Part shown: positions 1,859 through 27,632 of the stretch, piece after piece
Layout: each line of letters starts with the position of its first letter
How positions within the stretch are numbered: the stretch's first letter is position 1
DNA from: Pelagomonas calceolata
Taxonomy: Eukaryota
DNA: 64,000 nucleotides
Reading direction: 5' to 3'
Assembly: GCA_918797485.1 (NCBI GenBank)
Contig: CAKKNE010000004.1
Coordinates: 5,084,001-5,148,000 of the forward strand
The notes under the pieces: generated by a model
What the model saw: the letters and a program-made list of their open reading frames with translations, nothing else
Databases searched by the model: none
Told to the model about the DNA's origin: nothing
Made by a program: the position numbers and the translations under genes

Positions 1859-3912
1859 CTAGGCGTACTGCATGCGCGGGTTCGGCAGCACGGAGATTGA
1901 GAGCGGGATGACCTGCCTGCAGTTGGGACACGTCGCCGATTCGCCGACGCGGTCGCCCTCCGTAGACAACCGCTGCGCGGCCGCCAGCCAGTCCGAAAGA
2001 CACCGCGCGTGGAGGGTCGTACCGCAGCACGCCATCACCTTCGTGTTTTCCAACGCCAAGAGCTCGAGGCAGCAGACGCACACGTCGTCCGGCGCGACGG
2101 TCAACACCCTCGCGGGCGACGGCCGCGTCAAGCCGCCGTCGTCGGCCTCGTCGTCGTCGTCGTCGTCGGACCCGAGCATTTCCCAGGTAGTAGGCGTCGC
2201 CTCGGGCGGCGGAGGCGGCTCCGGCGCCGCCGGTGCGCCGCGCGGGCCGCCGCGAACGACCTCCCGAGGTCGCTCCGCGTCGCACGCCTGGCAGACCGTC
2301 GTGCCGGGCGCGTTCACGAGCGTGCACCGGTCGCAGGTCCACGACGTGGGTGACGGTGGCGCGCGCGCGGGCGGCGGCGGCGCCGTCGGCGCGGGCGCGG
2401 GCGGCGGCGGCGCGGTCGCGGCGTGCTCGCTCAGGAGCGGCTGCGGCGGCCGCGCGCCGGGCAAGCGGCGGCAGCTCAGGTACCGCACCGCGCCGTCGGC
2501 GTATTCTTCCGCGCGGAGCCCGTAGAGCGCCGCGACCTCGGCGGCGCGGGTCGAGTCGGCCCGCGTCGCGCGCGCCGGCAGCGGCACCTCGCCGTCCGCC
2601 TCGCAGCACCGCGCCAGCTTCCGCTCCAACGCGCGCAACGCGCCGCCGCCCCCGGCCAAACCGTCGACGTGGGTCGCGAGCGTCCGCTGCGCCCAGAGGA
2701 CCTGTGTATGAATCAACATTTCACGGCCTTCGACTCACCGGTTGATTTTTCGCACGGCAGAGGACCAGCGCCGGCGGCCACGCGACCGTTTGCGCGGCGC
2801 GCTGTCGATCGACGCCGAACGCGTCCGCGAGGCGCCGGTTCCGCGCGAGCAGGCGGTCGTTCGTCGACGGCGCGGCCCGGGGCCGCGGCCTGTGCGGAAA
2901 TCAAAATTTTACGGCGCGTTCGTGCTGAATCATCGCGTCGTCCTCCACGCCATCGACGCGACGCCGGCTCGACGGCGTGGCGATGCCGGCTCCTCGCCGC
3001 TCGACCGAGCCAGGACGGCCGCGCCATCGCCGAGAAACGACTTAGTGCACCCGACGCACTGGTTGATTTCCACACAGGCCGCGGCGGCGCCGAAAAAAGC
3101 CCGCGCGGGGCGGCTTGGGCGCGGCGCGCCCAGAAGGCGGCGTCGTCCCGGCGCCGCGTCGCGCTCTCCAGGACCGGGTACGACTCGGCGCTGTCCGGCG
3201 GCGGCGGCCGCGGCGCCGCGCTCGGCGCCGCCTCCTGGAAGACGCCGACGTCCGCATCCTCGACCACCAGACCGCCGCCGCCCCGTTCCGCCCGCCGCGC
3301 CGCGTCCTCCGCCAAGCGCACCTGCCGCGCGCCCAGGCTCTCCGCGTCGCCCCCGAACAAGGCGGCGAGGACGCGGCGCGACTCGGCCCGCAGCCTCTCG
3401 GACTGGAGCCTCCGTTGCGCGTCGTCGTCGCGCGAGAGGTCCAACGCGCGCGCCACGGTCGCGTCCTTCGCGCGGCCGTGCTTCTCGAGGTGCGCGTCCA
3501 ACGAGGCGCACGTCTCCCGCCGCAGCGGCCGCCGCGTGAGCGGATTCGCGAAGACGTTCGAGGAGACCAGGTACGCCGCGAGCACGCGCGCGTCGAAGAG
3601 CATCTTGTGGCCGTCCTCGTCGATCTCGAAGGGCTCGACGCGCAGCCGGTTGAGCGGCTCCAACGAAATGGGGTCCGTCTCCGACGCCGCGAGCTCGCGC
3701 CACCACTGGCCTTTGCGCGTCGGCGCGGCCTCGCGCCACCACCGCGTCACCTCGGCTTTCGCTTTTTGGGCGTCGCCGCCCTTTGCGAGCGCCACCAGCG
3801 CGGCGTCGGGCACGTGCGCGGGAGCGATCCGGCGCAGCGCCGCGATCGCCGCGGGCGGCACCGTCCCGCCCCGCTTCTGCGCCCCGCGTTTTTGCGCAGT
3901 TTTTGCGGCCAT
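1859..3912 (-). CDS. Multi-domain putative E3 ligase (U-box-like, R3H-like, RanBP2/NZF zinc finger, C-terminal RING); exons 3912-3086, 2889-2766, 2701-1859
   Basis: Removing two introner introns joins the frames exactly. Motifs: DPISLEPL...NPLTRRPL, WTCDRCTLVNAPGTTVCQAC, and CVCCLE...CCGTTLHARCLSDW...CPNCR. Confidence 0.8.
2702..2757 (-). mobile_element. Introner element, short degenerate copy; GT-AG intron 2765-2702 (64 bp)
   Basis: Imperfect TIRs ctgtgtatgaatcaac / gttgatttttcgcacgg. Perfect 8-bp TSD cagaggac at 2694-2701 and 2758-2765. Removal gives WPPAL|VLWAQ. Confidence 0.85.
2890..3077 (-). mobile_element. Introner element; GC-AG intron 3085-2890 (196 bp)
   Basis: TIRs ctgtgcggaaatcaa / ttgatttccacacag. 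Perfect TSD gccgcggc at 2882-2889 and 3078-3085. Removal restores the frame. Confidence 0.93.
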
Positions 3913-4298
3913 GAAAAAATCTATGCGCTGTGGAGCAAGCACAGGGTTCACAGGTTGCCTCCGCAAAGGCGAAAGGTGCAAGCACTTGCGCTGGCAGCGG
4001 GCCGGGCGATTGGTTATCTGTAGCAGACCCCCAAAGGCTGTCAGGCGTTGACAATCAGCACAGCCGCGCGCGAAGCGGTTCGCGCGGCGTGAAACTTGTG
4101 TTATGTGTGTTTCTAGGGTAGATAGACGTCCGCCTCCCAGGTCCTGCCACAGCTAGCGCCGTAAGGCACTAGCATCACCGGCGCTTTTGCGACGCAGCCT
4201 TGGACAGCCCAAATTCTTGTCGCTGGGTTAACTTGCCAGCCCAGAACGCTTTGTCTAGCCAGCCACCGCGCGGGGGCGTATTGACGGGCCGAGCAATA

Positions 4299-7200
4299 AT
4301 GGAGGCCGTCTACCGCCAGGCGCGGGCGGTCCTCGACAAGGCCGCCGCCGCGACGAACAAGGACCAAAAGACCGCGCAGATCTCGCTCCTCGTGGAGCTC
4401 TGCGCGTACCGCGGCGACAGCGCCCTGGTGGCGGAGGTGGTCGAGGGCGTCGCGGGCTACGCGGCCGACCGCTCGGCGAAGGTGCGCAAGGCCGTCGTCG
4501 AGTTCGTGGACGCGGTCGTCGCCAGGGGGAAGTTGCAAGTCACGGACGAGTGCGCGTCGACGGCGCTCGCCACGTGCTGCGTGCTCGCCGTCGACGAGAA
4601 CGAGCCGGTCGCCGCGGCGGCGCTCCGCGGCGCCGCGAGGCTGCTGGGCGACGAGCGGTTCGCGGCCGCGACCGTCGACGACGCCAGTCGCGAGCGCTTG
4701 CGCAACGCGGTCGACCCGTCGCACCGCCGGACCGCGACGGGCAGGGACGACGCGGTCCAGTCCGACGCGCACCGGGACGCGGCGCTCGCCGCCGTCGTGG
4801 CGCTGCTCGTCCGGGACGCGGCGGCCGACGGAAAGCGGCCCTCGAAGGCGACGAAGGCCGACGCCGCGGCGCTGGCGGCCCGCGCGGAGACGGGCGACGC
4901 GGCGGCCCTCGACGCGGCGGCCGCGGCGCTCGGGCGGCAGTTCGCCAAGTGCCACCGCGAGCTCGTGGCGGCCATCCTGGCGGCCCTCGAGAAGGACTCG
5001 TCGCACAGCCGCGCGGCGTGCCGGGCCCTCCACGCCGCGGAGCTGGAGCGGACGCGGTCGTCGACGGGCGCGGCGCCGCGCGGACGTCGACCGGGGGCCG
5101 CGCGGGGGGCGTCGCGCGTCCCGGGGACGCGGCGAGACGCCCCGGCGCCCGCGCAGGCGCGATCGCCGCGGCCGCCAACAAGTTGGAAGCGGCGCTTCGA
5201 CGCGAAAAGCTCGGCGGGGCCGCCGACGACGCGCTGCGGCGCGCGCGGCAGGGCCAGCCCTTCGAGAGCGAGGAGCCCCCGGCGAAGAAGCGGCGGCGGG
5301 ACCCGCGGACGCGCCGGGAGCGCAAGCTCAGCATCGACTACGACGACGTGGGCGACGACGCCATGGAGGTCGAGGAGGAGGACCTCGAGATGCCGCCGCC
5401 CGCGGAGCCCCCCAAGGACGACCGCGCGCTGTCCGCGCAGGCGGCGGGGCGGCTCGTGGCGGGCGCGCGGGGCCCCCGGGCGGCGGCGGCCCCCGTCCCC
5501 GACGCGCACCGGGCCCGGCTGCGCGAGGGCGCGGCGGCGCGCTGCCTCGCCGCGCCGGCCGAGACCGTCGCCGGCGAGAAGCGGTTCGAGACGCGGGACG
5601 CGATCGTCGCGCGCCTCGCGCGCGGCGAGGCCTGCGACCAGCCGGAGGGCGTGGCGCGCGTCCTGCGCCGGGCCGTGGCCGACAAGAAGAGCCGGCGGGA
5701 CGGCCTGGAGCTCGGGCTGCGGGTGCTGTTCGAACTCTACGCGCGCGAGAAGCGCGGCGCGGCCCGCGACGCGTACGACCGCTGCCTGCTGGCGCTCCTC
5801 GGGGCGCTCCGGGACGGGCTGGACGCGGAGGAGCGCAAGCTCCTCGCGGAGGCGGCCCTGGGCGCCCCCCGGCTCCCGGACGCGGCGATCGCGTTCCTCG
5901 GGGACCTGTGCGAGTCGCCGGACCACGTGGCGCTCGGGCTGGGCGCGCTGCGGGACGTGGCCACGCGGCGCCCGGCGGCGCGGGACCGGTGCCTGCGGCG
6001 CGCGCTGGAGCTGACGCGGCGGCCGGACGTCGCGCCCGAGGTGCGGGAGAAGGCCGTCCGCCTGGCGACGAACCAGCTGTGGCCCAACGCGGCGCTGCGG
6101 GAGACGGTCGTGGCCTTCGCGCGCGCGCGGCTCGAGACGGCCGCGCGCGAGGGGCCCGAGGGCCGCGCCGGCGACGGCGGCGACGCGCTGGCGGCGGCGC
6201 GCCGGGAGCTCGCGCTGGTCGTCGCGCTGTGCGTCAAGGACGCGTCGCTCGTGCCGGACGTCGTGCGGGCCGCGGCGGCGACCGCCGACGCGCCCGACGA
6301 CGCGCGGCGCGCCACGACGCGCCAGGCCTGCGAGGCGGAGCTCCCCAAACTGGCGCCAGCCCTCGCCACGGTCCACGGCGCCAAGCCGACGCTCGAGCAC
6401 GCCGCCGACGCGCTCGGGGGCGACCTGTCGCCCCGGCGGCGCGACGCGACCGAGGCGCTCCTGCGGTCGCTGGTGGCCGCGCTCGCGACCGGGCGCGGCG
6501 CGCGCGCGCCCCAGCTCTGGGAGGGCGCCGTCGCCGTGCGCGCGCGGGCGCGGCGGGAGCGGGGCAGCGCCGAGGAGGACGACGGGGTGGAGTTCCTGAC
6601 GCCCGCGCTCGGCGCGGCGACGGCCGCGGAGGTCGAGGCGGCGCTGCCGTCCCTGCTGCGGCGGCTCGACGACGCGCAGCTCGGCGCGGCGTTCCGGCGC
6701 GCGGTGCAGACGCACGCCGCGCGCGCGCGGCGTCCCGACGCGCGCGCGCTTTTTTTTTGTTTTTCCCCGCCGGTCCGCGACGCGCCGCCCGGTCCGCGCG
6801 CAGGCCAAGGCGTCGAAGTCGACCACGGACCTGGGGGCCGCGGACCTCCTGGTGAAGCTGCACCGCGTCCCGGCGGGCGCCGTGCCCGTCAAGCGCCTGA
6901 ACGAGGCGCTCAACGTCTGCCTGAGCCTGCGCGACGTGTTCGGGCCGCTGGCGCTCCGGGACGCGCTGGACCGCATGACGCCGCCGCAGGGCTCGGGCGC
7001 CGAGGGGCTCGCGGGCGTGCCGAAGGCGTTCCTGCGGACGTGCATCCTGGCCGTCAAGACGCACCCGGCGCAGCTCGCCGGGCCGGTCGCGCGGCGCGTG
7101 CTCCCGCGGCTGGTCGACGTGGGCGTCTGGCGCGACGCGGACCTGTGGAAGGGCTTCCTCATGTACTGCAAGATCCTGGGCGCCGGCGCGGGCGCCGGCG

Positions 7201-7370
7201 ACGACGCGTGCTTCGCCGCGGCGCTCATGCTGCCCGCGCCGCAGCTGCAGAAGCTCCTGGCGTTCGCGCCCAAGCTGAAGCTGCCGCTGAAGCGGCACGC
7301 GGAGAAGCTCGTCAAGGCGCGCGACACGGACGGGGTGGTGGCGGGGTGCCTTAAGTTGCTCGGGCTTTGA
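4299..7370 (+). CDS. SYMPK: Symplekin-like mRNA 3'-processing scaffold; two ordinary introns (about 5086-5156, donor uncertain; 6704-6803)
   Basis: HEAT-like N-terminus (SAKVRKAVVEFVD). The C-terminal block LLVKLH...ALNVCL...FLRTCILA...LPRLV...VWRDADLWKGFLMYC...LMLPAPQL resembles Symplekin_C. Both frame changes coincide with gcgcag acceptors at 5156 and 6803. Confidence 0.8.
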
Positions 7371-7947
7371 CGTTCAGAGTGTGTAGGCTGGGCAGGCGAG
7401 GACCTGCGCGGCGGGATTGGTCCCGGGGATTCGGTCGCGTACCCGTCGGAGCGTTCCCGCGCCTAACAAGAGCGGTGCGCGCGGTATCGTTTTTGCCGCC
7501 CGTAAATCACTACTCACGCGTCACGAGTAGAGCGATCCTAGTCCGAGCGCACCTCTGGGTACCGCCGCCGACACACGCGCGGCCTACAGAACTCGAAGCC
7601 CTGCGCGGCCGTGGATAGGCGGAGACGCTTTTGGCTAGTGTCTCTCTCACGCTACATACTGCAACCCGCGACCGGGAGCGGTCCTCGATCGGTACGGCCT
7701 GATGGCAGGCGTCGGAAGGCGTCTCGCGGAGGCCGGGTTGCAAGATGGTTGATCATCGAGGAGCAGCCAGAGCACCCAGATCTTAAGCGTCGACACCACC
7801 AGCACTCTGCGCGGACAGTTTTGCTCTCCAACCAGCGCGCGCGCTGTCTTCGATACGCTTACAGAGTGAATCCCACGCCGCGCGGCGGCCTCCAGTGCCA
7901 CACAGAGCTAAGACAGAGGCTCAGACGGCGGCCTCTCAGTGCCAGAG

Positions 7948-8457
7948 ATGGACTCCCCGCTCTCGCCCGCAGCCCGCGTCGCAGCACGAGTAGTGTTCGC
8001 CGGCCTGCCGCCGGCCTGGCTCTCGACCTTTGACAGCAGCTCGTCGCTCGACGACGACGACGACGACGACGAGGCGCTCGACGGCTACGACGAGGACCCG
8101 TTCGACGCCGACCCGCGGCGGGCGCGACGGCAGTACCAGTTCTACGCGCGGCGGCGCAGCGCGCGGCTCTCCACGTACAAGGAGTGGGTCGGCGCCGTCC
8201 GGCGCGCGAGCCGCGAGCGAGCCGCCCGCGAGGCCGCCCGCGAGGCCGCGCCGCTCCAGCGCTGGCGCCTGCCACCGCCCCGACGGCTCCGGTACCGGTC
8301 GGGGCAGAACGCCTTCACGGCGTTCAGCTGCCTGGCGGTCGCGATGGGTCTCGCGGGGGCGCCGTACGACCCCTTCGAGGAACGCTACCCGGACCGCAAG
8401 CACAGAGAAGCGTCCTGGCAGAAGCTCGCCGCGCGCTACGTGTCGCCGGTCCTCTGA
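7948..8457 (+). CDS. Hypothetical protein (~169 aa, acidic tract)
   Basis: ATG-to-TGA ORF with host-like C/G third positions between less coding-like flanks; no domain recognised. Confidence 0.55.
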   Translation: MDSPLSPAARVAARVVFAGLPPAWLSTFDSSSSLDDDDDDDEALDGYDEDPFDADPRRARRQYQFYARRRSARLSTYKEWVGAVRRASRERAAREAAREAAPLQRWRLPPPRRLRYRSGQNAFTAFSCLAVAMGLAGAPYDPFEERYPDRKHREASWQKLAARYVSPVL

Positions 8458-8749
8458 AAAACTCCGTGCGCCGCGCGATGCGGCACACGCTTCTCCTCTT
8501 TCCTCACGCGCCGCGCCCCGAAAGGCGCGCCGCCGTCTCCGCCGCTGCTCGCAAACCACCATCCCTTGTCTCCTTATGTTAAGAATTTATGATACTATGG
8601 GAGCCATCTGTGCCAGCCCGAGTCACTGGCACACCGCGAACGTCACCGCGACGACGACCGAGCATCACTGGCAAGCTACGTTAGAAAGATTAGGTATATA
8701 CGAACGAGCCCTCCCCCCTCTCCGGCCGGGGAGCGGAAGCACCACACTC

Positions 8750-11700
8750 TCACTCCTGCGCGGCGACGGCCGCCGACGCCTCCTCCTCGAGCGTCGCCAT
8801 CGTCGCGAGGTCGTCGCTCGAGTCGACGCGCTCCCCGAGGATCGCGTTCTCGTCGACGTTCGCGTTGATGTCGTCGCTGAGGATGTACTTGACGCGCGTG
8901 AAGCACTTCCGCAGGAGGGGCGACAGCGCGATGAACTCGCCCCGCAGCTGCAGGCAGTTGTGCATCTTCAGCAGGACGTTGCCGACGTGCCAGAGGCGCT
9001 TCTTGAGCACGTGCCGCTCCAGCGACGAGATGGCGGACGCGGGCGGCATGCGGCGGTCCTTGGCGATCTCGAACACCGACCCGTCGAGGTCCGCGTGCGC
9101 CGGCAGGCGCAGCGCGTCCCGGTCGCCGGCGAGGGCCTCCGGCACGCCGTCGAGCCGCGCCTGCGACGCCGCGACGATCTTCTCCCACTTGGCCCAGTTC
9201 TCCTGCCGGGCGGCGTCCTTCTGGATCCACGTGCACTGCGCGAGCGGCGTCGCGCCCTCGCGGCACGGGTGGCGGTCCACGATGTGCAGGAACGCGGCGA
9301 AGAACGCGATCTGCACCGCCTCCGAGCCGGCGTCCTCGGTGGCCTTCTTGAAGTTGAAGCGGTTCTTCACGAACTCGCCCATGAAGTCGGGCAGGGCGTG
9401 GGCGAGGGCCACGCTCTCCGGCAGGTAGTCGCGCAGCTCCCACACGCAGCACAGCTTCGGCCGGACGTCGGTGTTCTGGTCCGCCTCGGCGTCGCCGACC
9501 CAGAGGTCCAGCTTCTCGAGCGCGGCGAGCGCCTGCGCCACCGTCGCGTCCGACTCCGCCGCGGTCCGCCGCGCGCCCGCCGCGTGCTCCGCGAGCGAGG
9601 CCGCGCACAGCCGCTGGAGCATGGGCCGGTCCGCCGTCGCGCACAGGGCGTTCGCCGCGCACGCGTCGGACAGCGCGAGCGGCAGGGCCATGGTCGCGAA
9701 GTGCGGCGTCTTGCCGACGATGCCCGGCACCGTGCCGACCATGAGCCGCCGGATGCGCGGCCAGGTCATGCCCAGGTAGACGAGGTTGCCCTGCGTGTCG
9801 AGGCCCCGCCGGCCCGCGCGGCCGGCCATCTGCTGCGCGAGCAGCGGCGTGAGGAGGCCGCCCTCGTCGCCGCAGAACATCACGGTCCGGAAGGGCATGT
9901 TCACGCCGTACGCGAGGCTCACGTCCGAGAACACGATGGCCAGCTTGCCCTGCTGCGCCAGGCGCTGCACGACGCGCCGGTACACGGAGAAGGCCGCGTC
10001 CTCGATGTAGATCGCGAAGCCGCGCCGCAGCGCCCGCACGAGGATGTGCGTCGGCTTGAGCTCCTCGCGGCCCTGCGTGTCGCGCTTGAGCTCGAGCAGG
10101 ATGTCGTCGATCTCCTTGGCCGAGAGCCGCGACGTCGGCGGCGCCAGCACGAACTCGGGGTGCGGCGCCGAGACGTCGACGAAGGCGTCGCCGCCGTCGT
10201 CGAAGCCGTCGCGCGCCGCCTCCTCGGCCTCCTTCTCGTTGCGCGCCGCGTTCTTCTGGCGCTGCTCGGCCTCGCGCTGCTTCTCGTCGGCCTTGGCCTG
10301 CAGCTCCGCCGAGTACTCGGGGTACCGGGCGTCCTGCGCCTCCTCGAGCTCGACGAGCAGGCTCTTGAAGAGCGCCAGGCAGCGGAACGAGTCCAGGTGG
10401 AACGCGAGCGCGGGGAACAGCAGCTTAGACCGCATCTGCGTCGCGACGTTCAGGATGGAGAACCGGCCCGTCGACGCGGCGGCGTCCGCGCCCTCGGCCG
10501 CGCGCAGGTGGTCCGGCACGAACGAGTCGAGGAAGGCCGCCAGCGCGTCGGGGTCCCGCGCCGCCTCGTCGTAGAGCCGCTGCTTGAGGGCGCCCTCGTA
10601 GGCCTTGGCGCCGTCGAGCGTGATGCGGCTCCGCGCGGACGCCGCGGCCTTGAACGCGTCGGACTTGGGGTCGTCGCGCGGCGCGCGGCCCGTCCGCTTC
10701 TCGATGGCGGCGAGCGCCTCGTCGCGCGCCGCCTCCTCCCGCTTCGCCGCCTCGCCGAAGAACGTCGCCGGCTTGAGGCCGGCCGTCCCGTCGTAGGCCT
10801 TGGCGAGGGCCTCGTACAGGCTCTTGGAGTCGGCCGGCGTCATGGCGAAGGCGAGCTTCTCGTCGCCGAGGAGCTGGGGCACCTTGAGCGCCGCGCAGGG
10901 GTGCAGCGCGGCGAGCTGGCCGCGCGGGTCGAGGACCAGGTTCTGCACGTTGATGAAGCGGCCCGCGTGCTCCACGAGCTCCACGGCGTCGCCCGGCGCC
11001 GCGTCGTCGCGCACGCACTGCCACCAGTCCCGGAGCTCGGACGCGTTGCCGATCGTCGCGGAGAGCGCCAGCGTCGGGCACGTGACGTAGCGCACGAGGC
11101 GCTGCAGCGCCGCGCCCTCGTCGCCGTCGAGCGCGTGCACCTCGTCGAAGACCGCGTAGTCGAAGTCGAAGCCGCCGTCGAGCTGGGCGTAGTCCCAGCG
11201 CGTCGACGTGCACTCCTCGCCGACCTGGCCCCGGATCTTGACGAGCGAGCTCTCCAGCGCGAGCGGCGTGCCGACGACGACGCGCGACCGGTCCTCGGAC
11301 GGCCGGTAGGCCAGCTGGTTCGTGGCCAGGGCCACGCGCGCCGACCCCTGCAGGAGCTTCTCGAACATGGCGGCGACCTGCCACACGAGGGGCTCCGTGG
11401 GCACCACGAACAGCACGCGCTCGTTCGCGACGCACGTGTACGTCGAGATGACCGTCTTGCCCGACGACGTCGGCGCGCACACGACGGCGGACTTGCCGTT
11501 GTCGATGTGCCGCAGCACCTTCTTCTGCCACGCGTCGAGGCGCCAGCCCTTGAGGAAGCGCGAGAGCGGCGGCAGCCGGTCGTGCATGCGCGCGAGCTGA
11601 AATTCCGCCAGCTCCAGCTCCTTGCGCAGCTTCTTCGCCGCGCGCACCTCCTTCCGGAACTCGTGGACCAGCGCGGCCGCGGGCGTCGCCGGCTTCGCCT

Positions 11701-13028: not shown

Positions 13029-13062
<34 letters not shown>

Positions 13063-15292: not shown

Positions 15293-15652
15293 GGAGCATG
15301 TTGTCCGACTTTGTGCATTCCTCCGGCGCTCACCCGGGCCCGGGCGAGACTTGGCCTAGTACTAGAGGTACTGATAGACTAAGGCCTTTTCCTTATTTTT
15401 AAATTTGCTTTGCTTAGAGCTAGGCCGCCTAGCCACCACGAAAATGTGCCAGTTTGAACACTCGGGGCGACGGCGTATGGGGGACGGGTGGACGGGCGTG
15501 CGGTCACGCAGGGAGGCGTCGGTCGCGGTGGCTAGGCAGTCCTGAGGTCTCGGGGGGGGGGCGGCCCGGGGCGCTTGTTGTGGTCGCTCGCGCGCGGGCG
15601 GCGTCTCGGGCCAGCACGCCGTCGGCGCGGCGATAGGAGTCACACTACACAC

Positions 15653-17466
15653 TTACGTCTTCACATCCACCGCGGCGAAGTCGTCGTCGAAGAACCTCGG
15701 CTCGTCGATAAACGGCGTGCTCGGCGTGCGCCGCTTTCGGCAGAGCCGCGCGGTCACGAGCCCTAGCAGGGCGGCCGAGCCGATCGCGACGCCCGCAAAG
15801 CCGGCCGACACGGACGCGTCGTCCGGCGCGTCGTCCTGCGCGTCGTCCGGCGCGGGTCGTGGGGGTGCTGCCGCTGAAACCATCGACGAAGGACTCGTCG
15901 GCGCTCGCGTCGCCGGGACGTGCGCCGTCGGCGCGCGCGTCGGAGCCGGCGTCGGAGCAGGCGTCGGAGCCGGCGTCGGCGCGGGCGTCGGAGCCGGCGT
16001 CGGAGCAGGCGTCGGCGAAGGATACGCGAGCCGCGGGTCCGGCTCGGGCTCCGCGGGCGCGCGCGCGATGCGGGCGAGAGCGAGCACCGCCGCCCCGACG
16101 TAGTCGTTTTTTCGCGCTTTGAGGGGCTCGAGGTCGAAGTAGTAGTCGCGGGCCTTGATGGACGAGCCGCGACTCGACGAAGCCAGGCCGCGAGCCTCGA
16201 CGTACTCGGGAAGGGCAAGGGCGGCCCGGGACAAAGGCTCCTCGAGGTGTTTGGGCAGGCCGCCCCTGTTGTAAAGCCCCGCGAGCGCCGCTATGATCAA
16301 GGAGCTGCCCGAGGTCTCGATCTGCGCGGAAATCAAATGTCGCAGCGCGTCTCCTCCCACGGCCCAATCATGGGTGGCGGTCTCGATTCCTCACCGCTCG
16401 ACGGAGCCAGCACGGCCGCGTCATCGCCGCGAAATGACTTCGTGAAGAATTATTGGGTGCACGCGACGCACTGGTTCATGTCCACACAGGTCTCGACGTA
16501 GTTCCTCTCGTCGTTGGGCGCGTCGAGGACTTGCCACCAGAGGCCGCTCTCGGGGTCTTGAAACGCGACGACCTTGTCCAGGTACTCCACGAGCGTCGCG
16601 TGCGCCTGTCGACAGGCGTCCGGCGGCGCCGCGCCGCGGGCGTCCAGGCGCAGGAGCGCCCCGAGTGCCAGTTCCAACCCGGCCGCGGCCCAGCCGCACG
16701 CCCGCGACCAGCGGGCCTCCGACGCGACTTCTTCGTCCAAATCAAATCCGTGGCTCAAGTTCCCGAACACGGCGAGGAACCCCTGGGTGACGTTCGCCAG
16801 GGTCGTCGCGATGGCCACGGCGTCGCGGGGCTCGACGTCGTGGTGTTCGACCAGGGCCGCCGCGTTCAGCACGCCCATGAACACGTCGTCCGACCAGGCG
16901 ACCCGGTGCGAGTCCCTCGCATAGTCGTCGTTCCAGCCCGCGCCGCCGCCGCTGCCTTCCGATGTCCGTACCGACGTCCGTTGCCGGTAGAAGGAGGCGC
17001 CGCCACGCGGGAGCGCCGTAACGAAGCCTCGCTCAGCGTCTCCGCCCATGGACGCGTCGGGCACGAGCTGGTAACCGAGCACGATCGAGCGCGCTCGGTC
17101 CAGGTCCACCGTGGCGTCGAACAGCGGCGGGACCAGCAGCGCCGCCGCGGCCGATAGCTTGTCGCCGAGGCTCTCCCCCACGAACGAGGCGTAGTCCTCG
17201 CCGCCGCCGCCGCCTCTCAAAAACTCGAGGACCGCGCCGTCGCCGGCGGCGTACGACGTGCCCTGCAGGCTCGCCGCGTCGGCCCCGGCCTCGCCGAGCG
17301 CCCAGACGCACAGCGCGCCCTCGTAGTTTGGCTCTTCAGAGAGGAGGTCTTCGACGGCGCGCGACGCCTGCAGCGTGGCGAGGGCTGCCCTGGCCTTCGC
17401 GAGGGTCGCGTTAGGTATTGCTGCTTGCACGCCGGCAAGCAGCCACAGGGCGGCTCGCAGCAGCAT
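15653..17466 (-). CDS. Secreted, membrane-anchored GH105/GH88-like unsaturated glycuronyl hydrolase; exons 17466-16498 and 16321-15653
   Basis: Signal peptide MLLRAALWLLAGVQA. Motifs WSDDVFMG, HGFD, WSRACGW and QDPESGLWWQVLD...NY|IETSGS span the splice. A PAPT-repeat linker and C-terminal TM helix follow. Confidence 0.8.
16322..16489 (-). mobile_element. Introner element; GT-AG intron 16497-16322 (176 bp)
   Basis: TIRs ctgcgcggaaatcaa / ttcatgtccacacag. TSD gtctcgat (16314-16321) vs gtctcgac (16490-16497). Removal joins the two ORFs in phase 0. Confidence 0.9.
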
Positions 17467-17504
17467 GACGTGGATGATGTGGCTGCCCTAAGCTGTCTTG
17501 CGTG

Positions 17505-17529
17505 CTCTCTCTCTCTCTCTCTCTCTCTC
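17505..17529. repeat. (CT)12 microsatellite upstream of the GH105 gene
   Basis: Directly visible; a shorter (CT)n lies near 17590. Confidence 0.9.
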
Positions 17530-17640
17530 ACGAAGCGCTGGGTCCATACTACCTGGGCCACTGGTCCTGGGGGTGGGCACAATAAGCTACTCTCTCTCTC
17601 CCCCGATGCATAGGAGCAGTTATTGTGAACAACCTGCAAC

Positions 17641-19060
17641 TTACACAACAACTCGCCGCCGCGGCGCCTCAGACGTCTCCGCGGCGGAGGATGCGTTCCA
17701 GCCGCGCCGCGCGCGCGGGCAGCCCACCGGCCGCGCCGTCGGCCGCCAGCCCAGGGCCTCCAGGACGAGGGTCAGTTCGTCGTACAACAGGCCGTGGAAG
17801 TGCATCGCGTCGCCGGGCAGGTTCTCCTCGCAGCGGCCGTCCGTGAGCGCGAACGCGTCGACGACGTCGACGTCGGGCAGGGCCGAGCGCAGCCGCGCGT
17901 TCAGCGCCGCCGACGCGTCCCGCCCGCGCAGCCCCGCCGCGCAGTGGCGCGCGGCGTCGACGTCGCCGAAGCGGTCGCGGAGCCACGCCGCGCAGCCCGC
18001 CGACGCGGCCACGCGGCCCCGCCGCCGCGCCTCGTCCGCGACCCGCCGGAAGTCGCGCGTGAAGGCGGCGTCGCACTGCGAGTGCGTCGTCGACGCCACG
18101 ACGGTCGCGCCCGGCGCGTCGCGCGCGTACTGCCCCGCGGCCCGCCGCAGCGCGGCCTCGTAGCCGACGAAGCCGGCGTACGACGTCCACGCCGCCGGCG
18201 CCGGGGCGAACGGCGTCGGCCACTGCAGCCACAGGCCCGCACCTACGTGGCAATCAAATTTCGGGCGCCCCACGCCATCGACGCGACGTCGTCTCCGTAG
18301 CTGCGTCTGCTCGATGGCGCGGAGGCTTCACGCCGTCGACGCGACGTCGTCCCCGCGACCGCAGCGGCTCGATGGCGTGGAGGCTCACGAAGGTCTCCGC
18401 AATAGTTCTCAGGACAGCCGAAGTCACCGCTTGATTTCCACGCAGGCCCGCGCCGAAGACGACGGCGTCGACCGGCCCGCCCAGCGCGCCCGCCGCCCGG
18501 CCGACGGCCCGGGGGTCGACGTCCGTGCTCCCGGCGTACGCGGCCGCGACGTCGGGCCTCAGCAGCAGGGACCCGGCGCAGCCACACTCGCGCGTCGCGC
18601 GAAAGGCGGCCTCCTCGGCGCAGCCGCACTCGCCGCGACGCCGCCTCGCGCGCGCCGCCGGCGCGGCGAGGCGCCCCGCGCACGTCGCCACGGGCTGCGC
18701 GCCCTGGTCGTCGCCGCGCTGCCGCACGTTCATCGCGAGGCACAGCGCGTGGAACAGGTTCCGCATCGTGCTGTCGCCGACGAAAACGACGCCAAACGGG
18801 CGGCGCCGAGCCCGCCGCGGCGGCCGCGCGGCCCGAAAGCGGCCCTCGAAGCGGCAGAGGCCCTCCCGCAGGAGCGGCATGCTCGCGAGCATCTCGTCGT
18901 TGACCAGGAAGCGCGGCTTGCGCGCGCGCGGGTTGCCCTCCCAGTGGCGGCGCAGCGCGTGTCGCGCGCGCTCCGACAACGCCGCGACGTCGGCCTCGAG
19001 GAAGAGCTCGGCCCGGCCGGCGGCGCCGAGTAGGACCGCCGCGAGAGATTGGAGGAGCAT
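17641..19060 (-). CDS. Secreted SGNH/PC-esterase-like protein; exons 19060-18454 and 18242-17641
   Basis: Signal peptide, VVFVGDSTMRNLF (GDS motif), DAVVFG-AGLW across the splice, and C-terminal DAMH (DxxH). Confidence 0.78.
18243..18445 (-). mobile_element. Introner element; GC-AG intron 18453-18243 (211 bp)
   Basis: TIRs ctacgtggcaatcaa / ttgatttccacgcag. TSD gcccgcac (18235-18242) vs gcccgcgc (18446-18453). Frame restored on removal. Confidence 0.9.
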
Positions 19061-19144
19061 GTTTGCTGTGCCTTCCGCTTAATCTGACCTTGAGGCGCAG
19101 GACTGTAGTTTGCTGTGCCTTCCGCTTAATCTGACCTTGAGGCG
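19061..19144. repeat. Perfect 37-bp direct repeat (47-bp period) abutting the esterase start codon
   Basis: gtttgctgtgccttccgcttaatctgaccttgaggcg at 19061-19097 and 19108-19144. Confidence 0.95.
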
Positions 19145-19420
19145 GTTTGGAACTCGTAGCAGTGGCAGAAATGTGTAGGATGTGAGAAAAATCAATTATA
19201 TTGAAATCAGCCAGACTGCCAGCTCCCCTCGCCGGGCGGCCGACCTCTTTTTTTGCGGCATGCGAGGGATGCCTAGTGTCTTACAGGCCGCTAGCGCACG
19301 GGGCTTTAAGCTTTAGCTTTTGGACTTGCTTTGAGCGCTGGGTTAAGCAGTGGGAGAGGGCGCAATAGCAAGCGCACGGAACGCGTGAAGTCCGAGGAGA
19401 CAAACACAAAAACCTCGGCA

Positions 19421-20665: not shown

Positions 20666-20713
20666 TTCTAAGTCTGCGGCGTGTGTGTTCAATCCGGTCA
20701 TCCGCCGCTCTGA

Positions 20714-20859
20714 TACGGTGCTAGGACTAGTGCCCTGGGCTGGGGGGAGACACCATGCGTCGCCGATTCCGCGTCTTTCGTGTCAGTCGATGTTACGGTG
20801 CTAGGACTAGTGGGCGGAGCCCCTGGGGGGGAGACACCGCGCGTCGCCGCGTCTTTCGT
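20714..20859. repeat. Degenerate intergenic direct repeat (80-bp period)
   Basis: tacggtgctaggactagtg...ggggggagacacc...gcgtcgccg...cgcgtctttcgt begins at 20714 and at 20794. Confidence 0.85.
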
Positions 20860-21057
20860 AACAGGCCCGCGCTAGTAGGTCTTTGATGTAGCCCCACTTT
20901 TTTTTTTGGCTTTTGGCTAATTTCCTCCTAGCTCTTGCTCAGCTTGAACATAGCGCTGAGCTGCTGCGCCTGCGTTTTCCCTGTGTTTTCTCGTCGCGCT
21001 TGTTTGCAAAGCAGAAGAATTCGTCTGCCTGCTTTCACGCGGCCACACATACTCTAC

Positions 21058-21852
21058 ATGGACAAGCCGCTTAGCGCGCCGCGAGGCCCGGACGACGGCG
21101 GCAAAAAGCAGAAGCGGCCGCGCGAGGCGTCATCCGGCCGGGAGGGCGCCGATAAGCGCGGGCGTCGGGACGGCCGGCGGGACGGCGGCCGCCGCGGCGG
21201 GGGCCGCGGCGGCGGGGGTGGGGGGCGCGGCGACGGCCCGCGGCACCGCGGCGGCCGCGGCGGGCGCATCGGCGGCACCGGGCCGCGGCGCGCGCCCGAC
21301 CGCGACACGGTGCGGTTCAGCTACAAGTGGGCGGTCACGCCCGAGAAGCAGCGCGTGCCGACCGGTGCGGAATCAACCAGTGACAGAGGCGCAGTCGCGT
21401 CGCTGCGAGCTCACGGGATGGGACCAGTTCGACCTGACCCGATCAAGAAACGCGGTGCCGGACGACCCGACCATCGTCGACGGCCAAGCCTACGGCTACC
21501 ACGTTTGATTTCCGCGCAGGTGCTGACGGTGCGGGCGTTCGGCGCGGAGCTCATGAAAATCGGCAGCGGCGGCAGCCTCGAGATCTCGTCGGGCGGCTTC
21601 AGGACGTGGAGGACGTTCCAGGCGCTCAACATGGTGCTGGCGCCGGTGGGCCTCGAGCTCGAGGCGGACCCCGAGGGCCGCGGCGCGGGCTACCGCGGCG
21701 GCAAGTGGTCGCTGACGTCGAAGAACGGCTGGACGCTGCCCTTCGAGGACGACATGAAGCTGAGCGCGTTCCCGACGCGCGACTGGAAGCGCATCCTGCC
21801 CCAGCTCGAGAGCCTGCCGGAGGACGTCGAGTTCGTCGTGGCGAAGGACTAG
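21058..21852 (+). CDS. Hypothetical RGG-rich protein with small C-terminal domain; exons 21058-21354 and 21520-21852
   Basis: ATG at 21058, RG/RGG tract, and biased codons on both sides of a 165-bp introner. Confidence 0.75.
   Translation: MDKPLSAPRGPDDGGKKQKRPREASSGREGADKRGRRDGRRDGGRRGGGRGGGGGGRGDGPRHRGGRGGRIGGTGPRRAPDRDTVRFSYKWAVTPEKQRVPTGAESTSDRGAVASLRAHGMGPVRPDPIKKRGAGRPDHRRRPSLRLPRLISAQVLTVRAFGAELMKIGSGGSLEISSGGFRTWRTFQALNMVLAPVGLELEADPEGRGAGYRGGKWSLTSKNGWTLPFEDDMKLSAFPTRDWKRILPQLESLPEDVEFVVAKD
21363..21519 (+). mobile_element. Introner element, diverged; GT-AG intron 21355-21519 (165 bp, in frame, no stop)
   Basis: Ends cggtgcggaatcaaccag / tttgatttccgcgcag. TSD gtgccgac (21355-21362) vs gtgctgac (21520-21527). 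Confidence 0.85.
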
Positions 21853-22273
21853 CGTGCCGGGTTTTATATTAGGTGCCCAGAGTTGTGCGGCTTCCGTTTT
21901 GCTAATGTCTTACAGTCACTAGCACACTCTTCTGCTACAAGGGGTTCTTAGATGTATACTCCAAGTATATTTAGTGCGCTTAGTGGTGAACCGCAAAGGT
22001 CGCCGCGGCGAGCGACTGAGACGCCGCACCGCTTGTTGGCCGCGCCCTTGGTAGTATATGACTTTCGGCCCATTTTACACCAAAACGGACGCTCACGGTG
22101 GCTCACCCGGGGGGGTTCCGCCCACTAGTCCTGGCACCGCAACAACACTATAAGGTAATGCTTCACTGGGACGGGCCAGGACGACGACTCAGACCCGGGG
22201 AGGGCCCACGAGCTTGTACTAGGAGGACACGACCCCGTATTACGATACGGGTGGGGGGGGGAGGGGCGGGGAC

Positions 22274-23884
22274 TCAGAGCCAGCGGGCGACGCACACCGG
22301 CGACTCGACGAAGCGCGGCGCCGGCGCCGGCTCGGGGAAGACGTCCATGAGGAAATCGACGTGGCGCTTGCGCACGGCGCCGTCGCGCGGGACGGGCAGG
22401 TCGAACTCGGTCGGCTCGAGCGGCACGGGCGACGCCGGCGCGAGCGTGCGCGAGCCCGGCAGGCAGGCGGGCTCGAGCGCCGGGCAGGGCGGCAGCGGCG
22501 CGGCCGGCGGCGCGTACGCGGCCAGGACCTCGAGCGGCGACGCCTTGCGCTTGATGAGGGAGGCCGGCCGCGGCGGCGGCCGCGCCGCGGCGGGCCGGCA
22601 CGCGGGCGACGCCGAGAAGGGCGACGCGGGCGACACGGGCGTGAGCGAGCGCAGGGACTCGTCGTCGTCGTCGTCGTCGACGGCGAAGGCGGCGCCGTCC
22701 TTGTAGGCGAACTCGGCGAAGGGGCTCGGCGGCCGCGACGCGCCGTCGGTCATGTCCGCGAGCGTCCGCGGCGTGAGGAGTGCGGAGAGCAGCGCCGCCG
22801 CGGCCTCGGCCGACTGGTCGGCCGGCGGCGGCGCCGGGGCCTGGGTGGCGCGGGGCGGTTTCGCGGGCGGCCGTCCCGGCCGCGACGGGCGACGACGCGG
22901 TCGGCGCCGTTCGACGCGAAGGCGCCGCGCGGACGCCGCGGCGCGCCCGGGCGCTGCGGAGCGAGGCGCGGCGCGTCGTCACGCTCGAGCCGCCCCAGGA
23001 CGGCGCGCGGCCGACGGCGCGGCCGCGGGCGGGCGCGGCCGCGCGGCGCGGCGCCGCGGGCCGCGCCGCGCGGCGCTTCGCCGGCGCCGACTTCTTGGCG
23101 CGCGCGGCCTTGCGCTTCTGGGAGTACCTGCGCGCGCGGGGGGGGCGTCGTTTCCTGGTCCGGGCGGCGTTTTGCCGCATCCGTAATCCCGTCCCCGCCC
23201 CGAGATATTCGGCGGCCCGCGATTCGACGACGACGGGCCGTCGAGGTCCCTCGGAGAGGACCAGCGACGCCGCGACCCCGGAGGACTCTGAAACCGTCGT
23301 TGCGGTCGGAATCGACGGACGCGCCCGCGCCCGCGCCCCGCCCGGAACGGGGCTTCCGAAACCCGGCGTTCCCACCAAAAAAGCTCGAATGTCCACGCGC
23401 CGGCACCGCGCCAGTAGTTTTTGACCGCGTTGTCGGTTCTGCCCGGTAGCCTGCGCAAAGGGGGCGCGGAGGTGCGAAAACCGGGGACCGGCCGCGCGGA
23501 GCCGAGGGGCGGGATGAACCTCGAAACGGCGTCGTTTTTCGAAGGGCGCGTGGCTCGCCGTGGACGCGGCGATAACTACCGCTTGGCGATGGTCGCCCAC
23601 TTGTTTCCGACCTCGGCCTGGCTCTCGCGGATGATCCGTTCCTCGGCCTCGGTCCAGGGGCGCGTCGTGATCTTGGGGTCGAGGCTGGCGACCCAGCGCG
23701 CGCGGCACTGCTTGCTGGTCTTGGGGCGCCCCGGGAAGGCGTCGCTCACGTCGCGCGCGACGTCGGTCCACGCCCGCTTGCCGTGACTCGCCACGGCGGC
23801 GCGCACCGCGTCGTCCTCGGCCTCGGTCCAGGATCGCGCGTCGAGGAGGGGCGGCGACGTTCGGCCGGTGCGAGTCGTCGCCAT
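22274..23884 (-). CDS. R2R3-MYB transcription factor; exons 23884-23580, 23450-23412, 23127-22983, 22840-22274
   Basis: WTEAED...KQCRARW...LDP...WTEAEE...GNKWATIAKR|LPGRTDNAVKNYW|YSQKRK assembles in frame via GT-AG and GC-AG introns. The third intron is inferred from phase only. Confidence 0.85.
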
Positions 23885-24240
23885 GTGTTTTGAATTCAAC
23901 GGGAACTTTTTGCGAGGCGCGCGCTGCAAAATGAGAGAGGGCCGGCAGAGAACTTTGACTGAGGGTTTGAGCGCTGGTCGCGCCCTTGCGCGGGCGAAGA
24001 GAAGTAGTTGAGAGGCGAGCTTGTAGCGGCCGCCGAATCGAGAGAGAGAGCCGGGGCGTAAAAAGAGCAGATATGCAAATCTGGGCAAAAAAAACCCGGA
24101 ACCACCGCTCCAAACTGCCTCGAGAGGTCTCGCCTCGTGGGCGCTTATTAAAACGGGGGAAAGGGATTGTCTCCCCATAAAACGCCGCCCGAGTCTAGCG
24201 AAAACCGTGACAACAACAACTTAAAACGAACACAACTCAA

Positions 24241-25594
24241 CTATGCCGGCAGCAGCGGCGACGTCGGCGACGCGGGCGCCCGCAGGTCTGGCCGCTTCGG
24301 CCGCCCCTCCCGCGCCTGGGGCGCCGCCGGCGCGGGCGCCGCTTCCGTGGGCTCGTCGCGCAGGCGCCGCCGCTCGCGCGCGACGCTGGCCCGCCGCGTG
24401 ACCTCGGTGTAGGACACGACGCCGACCATCGCCACGAAAAGACCCAGCAGGTTCTTCGCGTTCGTCTCGAGGCCGAAGACCACGACCGAGAAGCCGATCG
24501 TGGCGATCGTCTTGACGTGGCCCAGCACCTGGTACGTTAGCGGGCTCGTGCGGCCGAGCACGTAGTAGTTCGACACGTTCGCGGCGAGCGCGAGCCCGCA
24601 GGACCTGTGTGGAAATCAAATTTCGGGCGCCCCACGCACGTGCTTTCCGTAGCTGCGTCTGCGCGATGGCGTGGCGATTCCACGCCATCGACGCGACATT
24701 GTCCCCGTGGCCACGTCGGCTCGATGGCGTGGAGGCTCACGAAGTCCACGCAATATTTCTCAGGATAACATAACTCACTGGTTGATTTCCACACAGCGCA
24801 GGACCAGAGGACGTCGCCCCGGAGGTCGGCGGTCCAGTCGAGCGCCGCCAGATGGGCGACGTCGTCGCACAGGGGGGACGCGGCGAGCATCGCCAGGGCG
24901 ATCAGGGGCGACGTGTGGTAGAGCAGCTGGTTCGAGTCGACGCGGAGCCGCCGCTGCGACCTGTGCGCAAACCAACCAGCGAGTCGGGCGCACTCCGCGC
25001 CGCCACAAATTTGATTGGCGCGCTGGTTGCCGACGAGGCGGTGGCGCGCTGCGCGAGCACCGTCGCGACGACCGCGACGGCGCCGTAGAGCGTGCCGAGC
25101 GGCGTCACGGTGTGGTCGTGGACCTCGGCGACGTAGAGCCCGCCCACGAGGGGCACGAGCGTCGCCAGCGTCGCGCCGTCCGGGAACCGGTCGCCCGCCA
25201 GGTACTGCGTCGCCAACGTGCAGGGGATGCAGGCCAGCTTGGTCATCTGGAAGAAGCCCACCGAGTTCTGCTTGAGGTTCAGGTTCATGAAGGCCATGGC
25301 CAGAAGGCTGGCGCCGGCGACGCGGACCACCGTCCGCCGTTCGCAGGCCTTGTACGCGAAGACGCCGCACCGCAGCATGACCCGCATGCCCGCGGCGGTG
25401 AAGGCCATCTGGCAGCTCGTGAGAAAGATAATGTGGTCGAACCGGTGCTGCGCCACGAGCCATTTGTTGACCAGCACCACGGCGCAGCTCGACAGCAGGT
25501 TCGCGAAGACCGCGAGCATGAGCGGCACGCGCAGCGCCGTGCCGAAGACGCCCGTGCGCTTGCGGTTTTCGTCGAGCCAGGCGCGCGGACGCAT
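24241..25594 (-). CDS. TPT/SLC35E3-like nucleotide-sugar transporter; exons 25594-25035, 24960-24805, 24604-24241
   Basis: NLLSSCAVVLVNKWL, MNLNLKQNSVGFFQMTKL, SNQLLYHTSP and GRTSPLTYQVLGHVKT. Three frames are joined by removing two introners. Confidence 0.9.
24605..24796 (-). mobile_element. Introner element with perfect TIRs and TSD; GT-AG intron 24804-24605 (200 bp)
   Basis: Perfect 15-bp TIR ctgtgtggaaatcaa / ttgatttccacacag. Perfect TSD cgcaggac at 24597-24604 and 24797-24804. Confidence 0.95.
24961..25025 (-). mobile_element. Decayed introner element in reversed orientation; GT-AG intron 25034-24961 (74 bp)
   Basis: Ends ctgtgcgcaaaccaaccag / aaatttgattggcgcgctg. TSD decayed (gctgcgac vs gttgccgac). 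Removal gives AQRATASSQRRLRVDSNQLLY in frame. Confidence 0.7.
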
Positions 25595-25620
25595 CGTTTG
25601 AGGCGCGCGCAAGACGACGG

Positions 25621-25693
25621 CTCTCCTTCGCAGCGGCGCCGCGCCGCCGGGTGCTTTTCGACGCCTCTCCTTCGCAGCGGCGCCGCGCCGCCG
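25621..25693. repeat. 29-bp direct repeat (44-bp period) just upstream of the transporter start
   Basis: ctctccttcgcagcggcgccgcgccgccg at 25621 and 25665, each followed shortly by gtgctttt. Confidence 0.9.
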
Positions 25694-26158
25694 ACAAGTG
25701 CTTTTACAGTACGCCCTTGCTTTCAGCAGCAGGGGTCCTGCCTAGCGAGGATTCTCGCTAATTTCGAGCACATTCAAGTAGGGGACAGAGCAGGCTGCAA
25801 GGCTAGGCCTTGTCCGTACTAACATGCGGTCTTAGCTATGCATCGTGCCTGCTAAAAAAATAAATTTTGCTCTAAATCGGCTAATTCCGGGTTTTTCCGG
25901 GTTTTCTAACATGAAACCAGTCATTTTTCCATTGCTACGGCCCGCGCAAGGGGTGCCCCGAGAGTGCTCACTCGTCCACCTGGCGATTTTTGGGGAGCCC
26001 GCCACGGGAGCCAACACGATGATTTGAGCACGCTACGTGGCCTCGTCACATATAGACGGAAGACTGTCAAACGTGGTGTATCGCCCAGGGCCTCACGTGC
26101 GCAACGCGGAAACAAGAGCTCGCGACCGCTCTATCAAGTTGGCTGACTAAGACACAGC

Positions 26159-27632
26159 ATGTCGACGAAGAAGACGCCGGCGCTGCGCAGCGCCTGGGCT
26201 CTGATGCTCGTCGTGCCGCTCGCCGCCCTCGTGCCGCCGGGCCGGCCGCCGCGCACGACGAAGCTCGACGCCGCGACGCTCGCGCGCCGCCGCGAGCGGC
26301 GCGAGGCGCTCAAACCGCTGCTGACGTGGCCCGAGGAGCAGCGCCTCGGCCGCGAGTGCCGGCGGCTCGCGGCCCTCGAGGACGTCCGCGCCCGGGAGGG
26401 CGCGCGGCTGCGGCGCGCGCCCACGCGCGGGGAGTGGGCCGCGGCCGCCAACTACTCGAGCGAGGCCGCGCTGCGGGCGGACCGCGCGCGCATGCGCGCG
26501 TGCCGCGACGAGCTCATCGCGCGGAACCTGCGCCTGGTGCTCAGCGTCGCGGGCCGGTACAAGCCGCAGCCCGGCCTCGAGTTCGACGACCTCGTCGCCG
26601 AGGGGAACTTCGGGCTGGCCAAGGCGGCGGCGCGCTTCGACCCCGGGCGGGGCTTCCGCTTCTCGACGTACGCGGTCTGGTGGATCCGGCAGGCGATCTC
26701 GCACGCCGTCGGCCACGACGCGCGCGCGATCCGCCTGCCGGCGCACGTGCACGACAAGCTGCGGCCTGCGTGGAAATCAACCAGTGCGTCGGGTGCACCC
26801 GACAATTCTTCACTACGTCGTTCCTCGGCGACGACGCGGCCGTCCTGAACGCGCCGTAAAATTTTGATTTCCACACAGGCTGCGGCGCATGCGGCGCCTG
26901 CGCGAGGAGTACCGCGAGGCCCACGGGCGCGACCCCGACGACCGGCACGTCGCGGCCGCGCTGGGCATTGATCACACAAAGGTCCGCGCGCTCGGGCGCG
27001 CGGCGCGCGAGGTGGCGTCGCTCGACGCGAGCGCCCTGCTGCGGGGCGGCCCGCGCAAGGGCTCGGGCGCGGCGGAGCGCTTCGCGCCGCGCGCGGCGGA
27101 CCTGCTCGCCGACGAGACGCAGGCGCCCGAGCGGCACGCGGACGCGGCGCTCGCGCGCGACGCGCTGGCCCAGGTGCTCGCCGAGGGCCTCGGGGCCCGC
27201 GAGCGCGACGTCGTCGCGGCGCGCTTCGGGCTGGACGGGCGGCCGCCCAGGAACCTGGCGCAGATCGGCGCGGCCTACGGCCTGACGCGCGAGCGCATCC
27301 GGCAGATCGAGCGCGCCGCGCTCTACAAGCTGCGCATGCCGCACCGCGCGCGCAAGCTGGCGCCGCACGCCGACCTGCCCGCGGCGCCGCGGCGCCGCGC
27401 GCCCGCGGCGCCGGGGCCGCCGGCCGCGGTCGCGCGCTGCGCCTGCCGCGACGTAGCCGTCGGCGACCGCCTCGTCGCGGCCGACGACGCGGGCCGCGCA
27501 TGCGTCGTCCGCCAAATCAAGAAGGGCGGCTGGCTCGTCGTGAGCTGGGAGGACGAGCCGGGGCGAGCGTTCGCGCGGCCGTCGGCGTTCCGCCTGCCCG
27601 ACCGCAAGGCCGCGCCCGGCGGGGAGTCGTAA
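26159..27632 (+). CDS. Nucleus-encoded sigma-70 family factor, probably plastid-targeted; exons 26159-26757 and 26879-27632
   Basis: Region 2 (NLRLVLSVA...DLVAEGNFGL...RFDPGRGFRFSTYAVWWIRQAI), RAIRLPAH, and region 4 (GLTRERIRQIERAALYKLR). Hydrophobic N-terminal leader. Confidence 0.92.
26766..26878 (+). mobile_element. Introner element, internally deleted; GC-AG intron 26758-26878 (121 bp)
   Basis: TIRs ctgcgtggaaatcaa / ttgatttccacacag. Perfect TSD gctgcggc at 26758-26765 and 26879-26886. Removal gives HVHDKLRRMRR. Confidence 0.95.

Follow-up and report, generated by a model that had tools for sequence, protein, structure and literature searches.

The question raised by a 64,000-nucleotide (nt) stretch of the Pelagomonas calceolata genome (assembly GCA_918797485.1, contig CAKKNE010000004.1, positions 5,084,001 to 5,148,000 of the forward strand; hereafter the window) is how six of its genes can carry eight short transposon-like elements, designated E1 to E8, within their coding sequences. 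The best explanation, which we consider very probable, is that all eight are introners, that is, noncoding DNA transposons with terminal inverted repeats (TIRs) that are likely removed by the spliceosome, that are putatively mobilized by a hAT-type transposase, and that may be replaced in place by gap repair. The grounds are the anatomy of the elements, the restoration of reading frames upon their removal, gap-free homologs at seven junctions, one junction in RNA, a donor rule among wild copies of the family, and empty sites in wild DNA. The coordinates of the elements and of their host genes (A, B, C, D, F, and G) are collected in the table.

A search of the window for the TIR consensus, allowing up to three mismatches, returned 13 matches, whereas 60 simulated windows averaged 0.17 matches and never exceeded 1. 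Automatic pairing of ends that share an 8-bp duplication recovered five elements in the window and none in the simulations; E1, E5, and E7, each of which has one decayed end, were recognized by reading the sequence. A preliminary description, made from the sequence alone, had listed eight elements of 56 to 203 bp with a shared TIR, and this was borne out: eight elements of that size range, with 15-bp inverted ends and 8-bp target duplications, lie in the six genes. The duplications had been given as 8 bp throughout. They are perfect in E1, E2, E6, and E8; E3, E4, and E5 match at 7 of 8 positions (E4 at 8 of 8 in wild runs), and the intron-side copy at E7 is a decayed 9-mer. On the gene strand, the upstream duplication starts with GT in E1, E3, E5, E6, and E7 and with GC in E2, E4, and E8, the same five GT and three GC donors as first described. 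The 3' end of the intron is CAG in seven elements, as had been proposed for all of them, whereas E4 ends in TAG. E2, E3, and E8 belong to one subfamily, E4 and E6 to a second, and E1, E5, and E7 are decayed; the orientation of E7 is reversed relative to that of other family copies. In the predicted RNA fold of the E6 intron (z = -4.4), the two TIRs pair with each other, as inverted repeats will, and the fold was not used as evidence.

In silico removal of each element together with one copy of its duplication extended the open reading frames (ORFs) of genes A, B, C, F, and G from 399 to 597, 338 to 545, 268 to 402, 230 to 359, and 229 to 450 amino acids (aa), respectively. A retained element breaks the frame in every case except that of E5, which is in frame, free of stops, and provided with an alternative internal GT at 21394; gene D encodes 264 aa with E5 unspliced and 209 aa when it is spliced. 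The predicted gene D product is identical to P0003 at every residue, and both exons of gene D are matched by a named P. calceolata protein. The gene G product differs from P0010 by five substitutions and no indels. Homologs pass seven of the eight junctions without a gap. Sigma-70 proteins, both algal and bacterial, align gap-free at E8, four distant homologs pass the E4 junction, and the GH88 domain runs across the E3 site in P0305. E2 is absent from 37 and E1 from 30 of 38 gene A homologs, in a search that favored long ORFs and hence empty alleles. At E7, the homologs that pass are conspecific proteins only. The full-length products and the gap-free homologs support the earlier claim that removal of an element with one duplication repairs six genes. 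The companion claim, that the elements account for most broken ORFs in the region, is subject to two corrections: E5 breaks none, and the Symplekin gene has two frame switches without a recognizable TIR. These lie at about 5040 to 5156 and 6700 to 6803, both end in CAG, and they are ordinary or fully decayed introns. The order of Peptidase C78, GH88, and sigma-70 genes in the published P. calceolata gene table is the same as in the window. The syntenic published sigma-70 model (window 26159 to 27632) contains regions 2 and 3 only, and the product predicted here adds region 4; a mis-call at the GC donor is possible.

RNA evidence comes from a polyA sequencing run (X21). Joints were listed for the part of the window that holds E3 to E8, with E1 and E2 outside it, and 1025 further joints exist beyond those listed. 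Among the joints listed, one from 24956 to 25031 skips 74 bases with GT..AG on the minus strand, which is exactly the predicted E7 intron; it is supported by four reads with two start places. X21 carries the window alleles at the covered variant positions listed near the genes, and the E7 joint is therefore probably the product of splicing and not of an empty allele. Exact splicing, with junction reads at the element boundaries, had been predicted in the preliminary description. Among the joints listed, this prediction is matched in RNA at E7, whereas in gene D the NCBI model uses a donor other than the predicted one.

The family was then characterized in metagenome contigs, where a search with a 21-letter end pattern gave at least 123 stretches, stored as 121 loci, with at least 113 paired copies. 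Among the listed loci, an exact duplication of length 8 was present in 48 of the 113 paired copies, and any other length from 4 to 12 was found in zero to two. For the 84 copies kept, which have no more than two duplication mismatches, GT or GC opens the duplication on at least one strand in every case, where the chance expectation is 0.32 for each. Sufficient flanking sequence for a coding-strand test was available for 79 copies, with a codon model that was derived from the window, at 72% GC, and is a poor fit to loci of lower GC. The donor lay on the predicted coding strand, in the frame given by one duplication, in 36/36 copies with a positive coding score and in 38/43 others (74/79 overall). 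A stricter test with shorter flanks could be applied to 14 of the 84 copies, and all 14 fit. Among the 82 oriented copies, donors were GT in 69 and GC in 13, acceptors were CAG in 80 and TAG in 2, and the elements were in either orientation at a ratio of 40:42. The terminal AG was intact at all 82 acceptor ends, compared with seven mismatches at the matching two positions of the donor end.

Positions 3 to 8 of the duplication showed no target preference in these oriented copies. A palindromic target preference of the transposase also was considered and found to be unsupported (AC closes the duplication in 8 of the 82 copies, versus 4.5 expected; P = 0.08). With positions 3 to 8 free and no clear palindromic preference, the pattern agrees with selection that retains insertions able to be spliced, and not with a dedicated target sequence. 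Copies are most often 203 bp long (16 of them), those with a clear duplication reach at most 262 bp among the listed loci, and the 121 loci contain at least three 203-bp subfamilies. A separate 203-bp subfamily, which in ungapped comparison is about 50% similar to the main one, is found at loci L010, L012, L014, and L113 (72 to 75% GC) and at L096 (68% GC), and possibly comes from a sister species. Similar elements recur in unrelated genes, with a TIR, a duplication of fixed length, and splice sites supplied by the element and the duplication that leave the mRNA at its original length, as is characteristic of introners. The mechanism that had been proposed from the window, with a donor from the duplication and an acceptor AG from the TIR, fits these statistics as well as the ORF restoration, the homologs, and the E7 RNA junction.

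Four of the eight sites (E1, E2, E3, and E7) are both filled and empty in wild DNA haplotypes, which provides the empty-site polymorphism that had been named earlier as a check. Two putative DNA runs (X8 and X12, the kind of run being an automatic guess) skip 176 bases at E3 and 74 bases at E7. E3 is empty in eight listed gene B proteins, which have Val where the window's exon copy encodes Ile and therefore are not transcripts of the window allele. Eleven gene A proteins have E1 and lack E2, some of them on contigs of 5 to 9 kb, and empty alleles of E1 and E2 were seen as ORFs on contigs of 5 to 20 kb; wild E1 alleles are 66 nt long and in frame. Of the listed proteins, 15 have E7 and 7 lack it, and metagenome contig L037 contains a clean empty E7 site. 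At E4, each of the 14 listed conspecific ORFs extending to the site contains the element, and the gene is intact on both sides. The E5 alleles in the wild include 165-nt, 78-nt, and frameshifted forms; they are often frameshifted or shortened, which indicates an insert without coding constraint. An element-free E5 allele (P0006, on one 859-bp contig) has Pro where homologs have Leu, the residue being that of the intron-side duplication copy; this would fit a DNA-level deletion between the duplications.

The E6 site differs in its occupants. L037 is 100% identical to the gene F exons over 164, 232, and 359 bases, and at the E6 site, within the same duplication, it carries an E2-subfamily element of 199 bp that lies in the opposite orientation. 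Of the aligned bases of this occupant, 173/186 match E2, and its score is 280 against E2 and 61 against E6. The reversed E2-type occupant also is read into by six proteins on 13 contigs of up to 18.9 kb, from both JGI and ENA, with deletion variants of its own. A further protein, P0261, from a single contig, has an inverted and shortened E6 at this site, and its insert matches E6 itself read backwards. The protein cluster for the site has 34 members, 15 of them listed, and the contigs do not count as independent samples. An empty E6 allele was found neither in L037 nor in the seven listed proteins extending to the junction. L037 also has, at its positions 1018 to 1189 (window position about 25262), a 172-nt GT..CAG intron of gene F that is missing from the window; neither a TIR nor a duplication is present, but an internal motif is shared with the elements, and the intron may be either an old copy that has decayed or one that was precisely lost.

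The following mechanism would link these observations. The GT or GC that opens the upstream duplication would serve as the donor and the AG at the TIR end as the acceptor, and the element would be removed with one duplication. A transposase encoded elsewhere in the genome, probably of the hAT type, would mobilize the elements. Because both TIR ends offer an AG, either orientation would work, and selection would retain only those insertions whose duplication begins with GT or GC on the coding strand. After excision, another family copy may sometimes serve, by way of the shared TIRs, as the template that fills the gap, or repair may be aborted part-way. This would yield replaced, inverted, and internally deleted alleles at one site, with the splice sites unmoved, and we suggest that the occupant of E6 was exchanged in this way. 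Introner sites would then be slots with a turnover of occupants, in which excised introns are refilled, flipped, shortened, or precisely erased through the shared TIRs or duplication. We put forward this wider proposal tentatively and place it a little below an even chance.

The source of the transposase would lie outside the region analyzed. As stated in the preliminary description, the window appears to have none: Pfam scans of window pieces, which cover less than a full six-frame screen, found no transposase family. Viral contigs gave no match to the element family, and PF05699 (hAT transposase) has no row among the listed rows of the published gene table. Candidates for longer copies (seven with no partner TIR inside 320 bp, plus two further long pairings) proved to be decayed short copies. 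The 8-bp target duplication and the short TIR are as in hAT elements, an assignment to be read with the fact that 8-bp duplications also are found in other superfamilies. A Transib/RAG-like (AanRAGL) origin was rejected, since the 8-bp duplication and the symmetric 15-bp TIR seen here rule it out; AanRAGL is defined by a 5-bp duplication and asymmetric bipartite TIRs (PMC9435367; here and below, statements on cited papers refer to the sections of each that were used).

Among 11 introner families of P. calceolata published by Gozashti in 2025, family 2 (340 copies, 202 bp) is classed as "co-opt 5-prime, carry 3-prime" and has a hAT label from a RepBase hit (PMC12130899). It resembles the elements described here in species, in being a TIR DNA transposon, and in length (202 bp versus the modal 203 bp), and its donors are GT and GC in 281 and 42 cases, compared with 69 and 13 here (PMC12130899). 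The match thus is by length, donors, and mechanism; the published entry, in the part used, gives neither a duplication length nor within-species alleles, and the present sample splits into at least three 203-bp subfamilies. Guerin (2022) reported 956 putative P. calceolata introners with GT and GC donors, an AG acceptor, and a conserved TIR (PMC9481584). Their intron length peak of about 210 bp compares with 203 + 8 = 211 here, and duplication and polymorphism are not described in the text used of Supplementary Note 3 (PMC9481584). The general introner mechanism was described by Gozashti in 2022 (PMC9860276). Both the splice trick and the element family are thus already known for P. calceolata; the class had been called known in the preliminary description, and the family is moreover catalogued in the species itself.

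Introners of Aureococcus anophagefferens have an 8-bp duplication. This alga is a different host and was rejected as the source of the window; its closest sigma factor match is 59% identical. Its family 1 likewise is "co-opt 5-prime, carry 3-prime," and GC donors are far rarer there (10/316) than here (PMC12130899). In Micromonas, introner presence-absence polymorphisms in ocean samples and possible hot spots have been reported (PMC3879977, PMC4540971), and within-species filled and empty sites are found there as they are here. The Micromonas elements, however, are sense-only and include nested or merged copies, and the text used from these papers contains no replacement in the opposite orientation within the same duplication (PMC3879977, PMC4540971). 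Parallel intron gains are known from fungi (PMC4457414). An analogy for the E6 site is the P element of Drosophila, where one TIR element precisely replaces another in place and end homology supports gap repair (PMC3887531), a result obtained in laboratory Drosophila without an intron. In a literature scope that left Huff 2016, on Aureococcus introners, and most subscription papers outside, we found no report of in-place replacement or inversion of an introner. We likewise found no published account of single-site turnover; Huff 2016 or its supplements may already cover polymorphism or replacement.

Several points weigh against parts of the introner explanation. Of the eight junctions, only that of E7 is represented in RNA among the joints listed. 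Reads of the same polyA run cover element sequence several hundred-fold on both strands, and some element-bearing RNA therefore exists genome-wide. The NCBI model of gene D (P0159) uses the internal GT at 21394 and keeps 13 element-derived residues. No homolog that passes the E6 junction was present among the fetched proteins, and neither the window nor the 121 metagenome loci contained an autonomous copy. In the family statistics, 29 of the 113 paired copies had three or more duplication mismatches and were dropped, and 5 of the 79 copies tested misfit in strand or frame. The evidence for replacement consists of one DNA contig and translated metagenome ORFs, with the inverted allele on one contig.

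The gene D model and the abundance of element sequence in polyA reads would agree with splicing that is inexact or incomplete, with some elements retained or internal donors adding residues, and the in-frame, stop-free E5 and the in-frame wild E1 alleles point the same way. We consider this unlikely overall, since wild E5 alleles show no coding constraint, P0003 and P0004 match the exact gene D product, and retention would break the frame in all but one of the eight cases. That the elements are ordinary gene-breaking miniature inverted-repeat transposable elements, left unspliced, is scarcely credible. One site only has an RNA junction among the joints listed, as such elements would lead one to expect, but that site does have junction reads, all 84 kept copies follow the donor rule with a bias in coding strand and frame, and gene C is intact on both sides of an E4 that was filled in every listed ORF reaching it.

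Two other alternatives concern E6. Its occupants could be independent parallel insertions at a hot spot, without in-place replacement, and hot spots or parallel gains have been proposed for Micromonas, Daphnia, and fungi (PMC4540971, PMC4457414). The absence of an empty E6 allele from the sequences listed above argues against this, as do the lack of target preference at duplication positions 3 to 8, the P0261 insert, which is E6 itself in reverse, and a chance of reuse estimated at about 2 in 10,000 for each site, given about 1000 copies and about 5 million GT/GC sites; we regard parallel insertion as improbable. Assembly chimeras across a high-copy repeat are a very improbable source of the alternative occupants. 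The family is of very high copy number, its element bins being tens to more than 100-fold deeper than unique bins, and the evidence comes wholly from assemblies. The two ends, however, share only 15 bp, which is below the usual assembly word length, both L037 junctions are flipped concordantly, and the allele recurs on 13 JGI and ENA contigs with deletion variants.

Table. Host genes and introner elements in the window (positions are those of the window; aa, amino acids)
Feature	Positions	Strand	Description
Gene A, RanBP zinc-finger and RING protein	1859..3912	-	597 aa without E1 and E2
E1	2694..2765	-	56-bp element 2702-2757, perfect 8-bp duplication; predicted intron 2702-2765, 64 nt, GT..CAG
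E2	2882..3085	-	188-bp element 2890-3077, perfect duplication; predicted intron 2890-3085, 196 nt, GC..CAG
Gene B, glycoside hydrolase family 88 (GH88)	15653..17466	-	545 aa without E3
E3	16314..16497	-	168-bp element 16322-16489, duplication 7/8; predicted intron 16322-16497, 176 nt, GT..CAG
Gene C, no Pfam family	17641..19060	-	402 aa without E4
E4	18235..18453	-	Full-length 203-bp element 18243-18445; predicted intron 18243-18453, 211 nt, GC..TAG
Gene D, no Pfam family	21058..21852	+	209 aa without E5
E5	21355..21527	+	157-bp element 21363-21519, duplication 7/8; predicted intron 21355-21519, 165 nt, GT..CAG
Gene F, TPT/SLC35-type transporter	24241..25594	-	359 aa without E6 and E7
E6	24597..24804	-	192-bp element 24605-24796, perfect TIRs and duplication; predicted intron 24605-24804, 200 nt, GT..CAG
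E7	24953..25034	-	Decayed 65-bp element 24961-25025, reverse orientation; intron 24961-25034, 74 nt, GT..CAG
Gene G, sigma-70 factor	26159..27632	+	450 aa without E8
E8	26758..26886	+	113-bp element 26766-26878, perfect duplication; predicted intron 26758-26878, 121 nt, GC..CAG

The window is 72% GC and contains no N; the mean of the published P. calceolata genome is lower, at 63.6% GC (PMC9481584). A second high-copy repeat, about 72 bp long and bounded by TG..CA, flanks gene D (20711 to 20862 and 22096 to 22144) as two tandem copies and an inverted partial copy, and it also is present in 4 of the 121 metagenome loci. Short tandem duplications at 25614 to 25692 and 15936 to 16009 are missing from wild contigs (77 and 72 bases, respectively). 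A Myb-domain gene at 22274 to 23884 has frame changes, and its middle part is ambiguous. From 27886 to 64000, the minus strand has an uninterrupted ORF of more than 12,000 aa in which fibronectin type III domains are numerous, and these 36 kb contain no introner.

For gene annotation, introners with GC donors can mislead gene models, for which gene D is given as a case. For the biology of the family, the population layer matters more than the splice trick: four of the eight sites are filled and empty in the wild, and one is occupied by different elements. If introner sites do behave as slots, a single machine would lie behind the gain, swapping, and loss of introns in a living population, and "parallel gain" at one position, as well as young-looking introns at old positions, would be by-products of it. 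Cultures, a reference genome, and deep metagenomes are available for the ocean alga P. calceolata, and the fitness cost of new introns, the routes of intron loss, and the origin of "parallel" gains would be testable within this one species.

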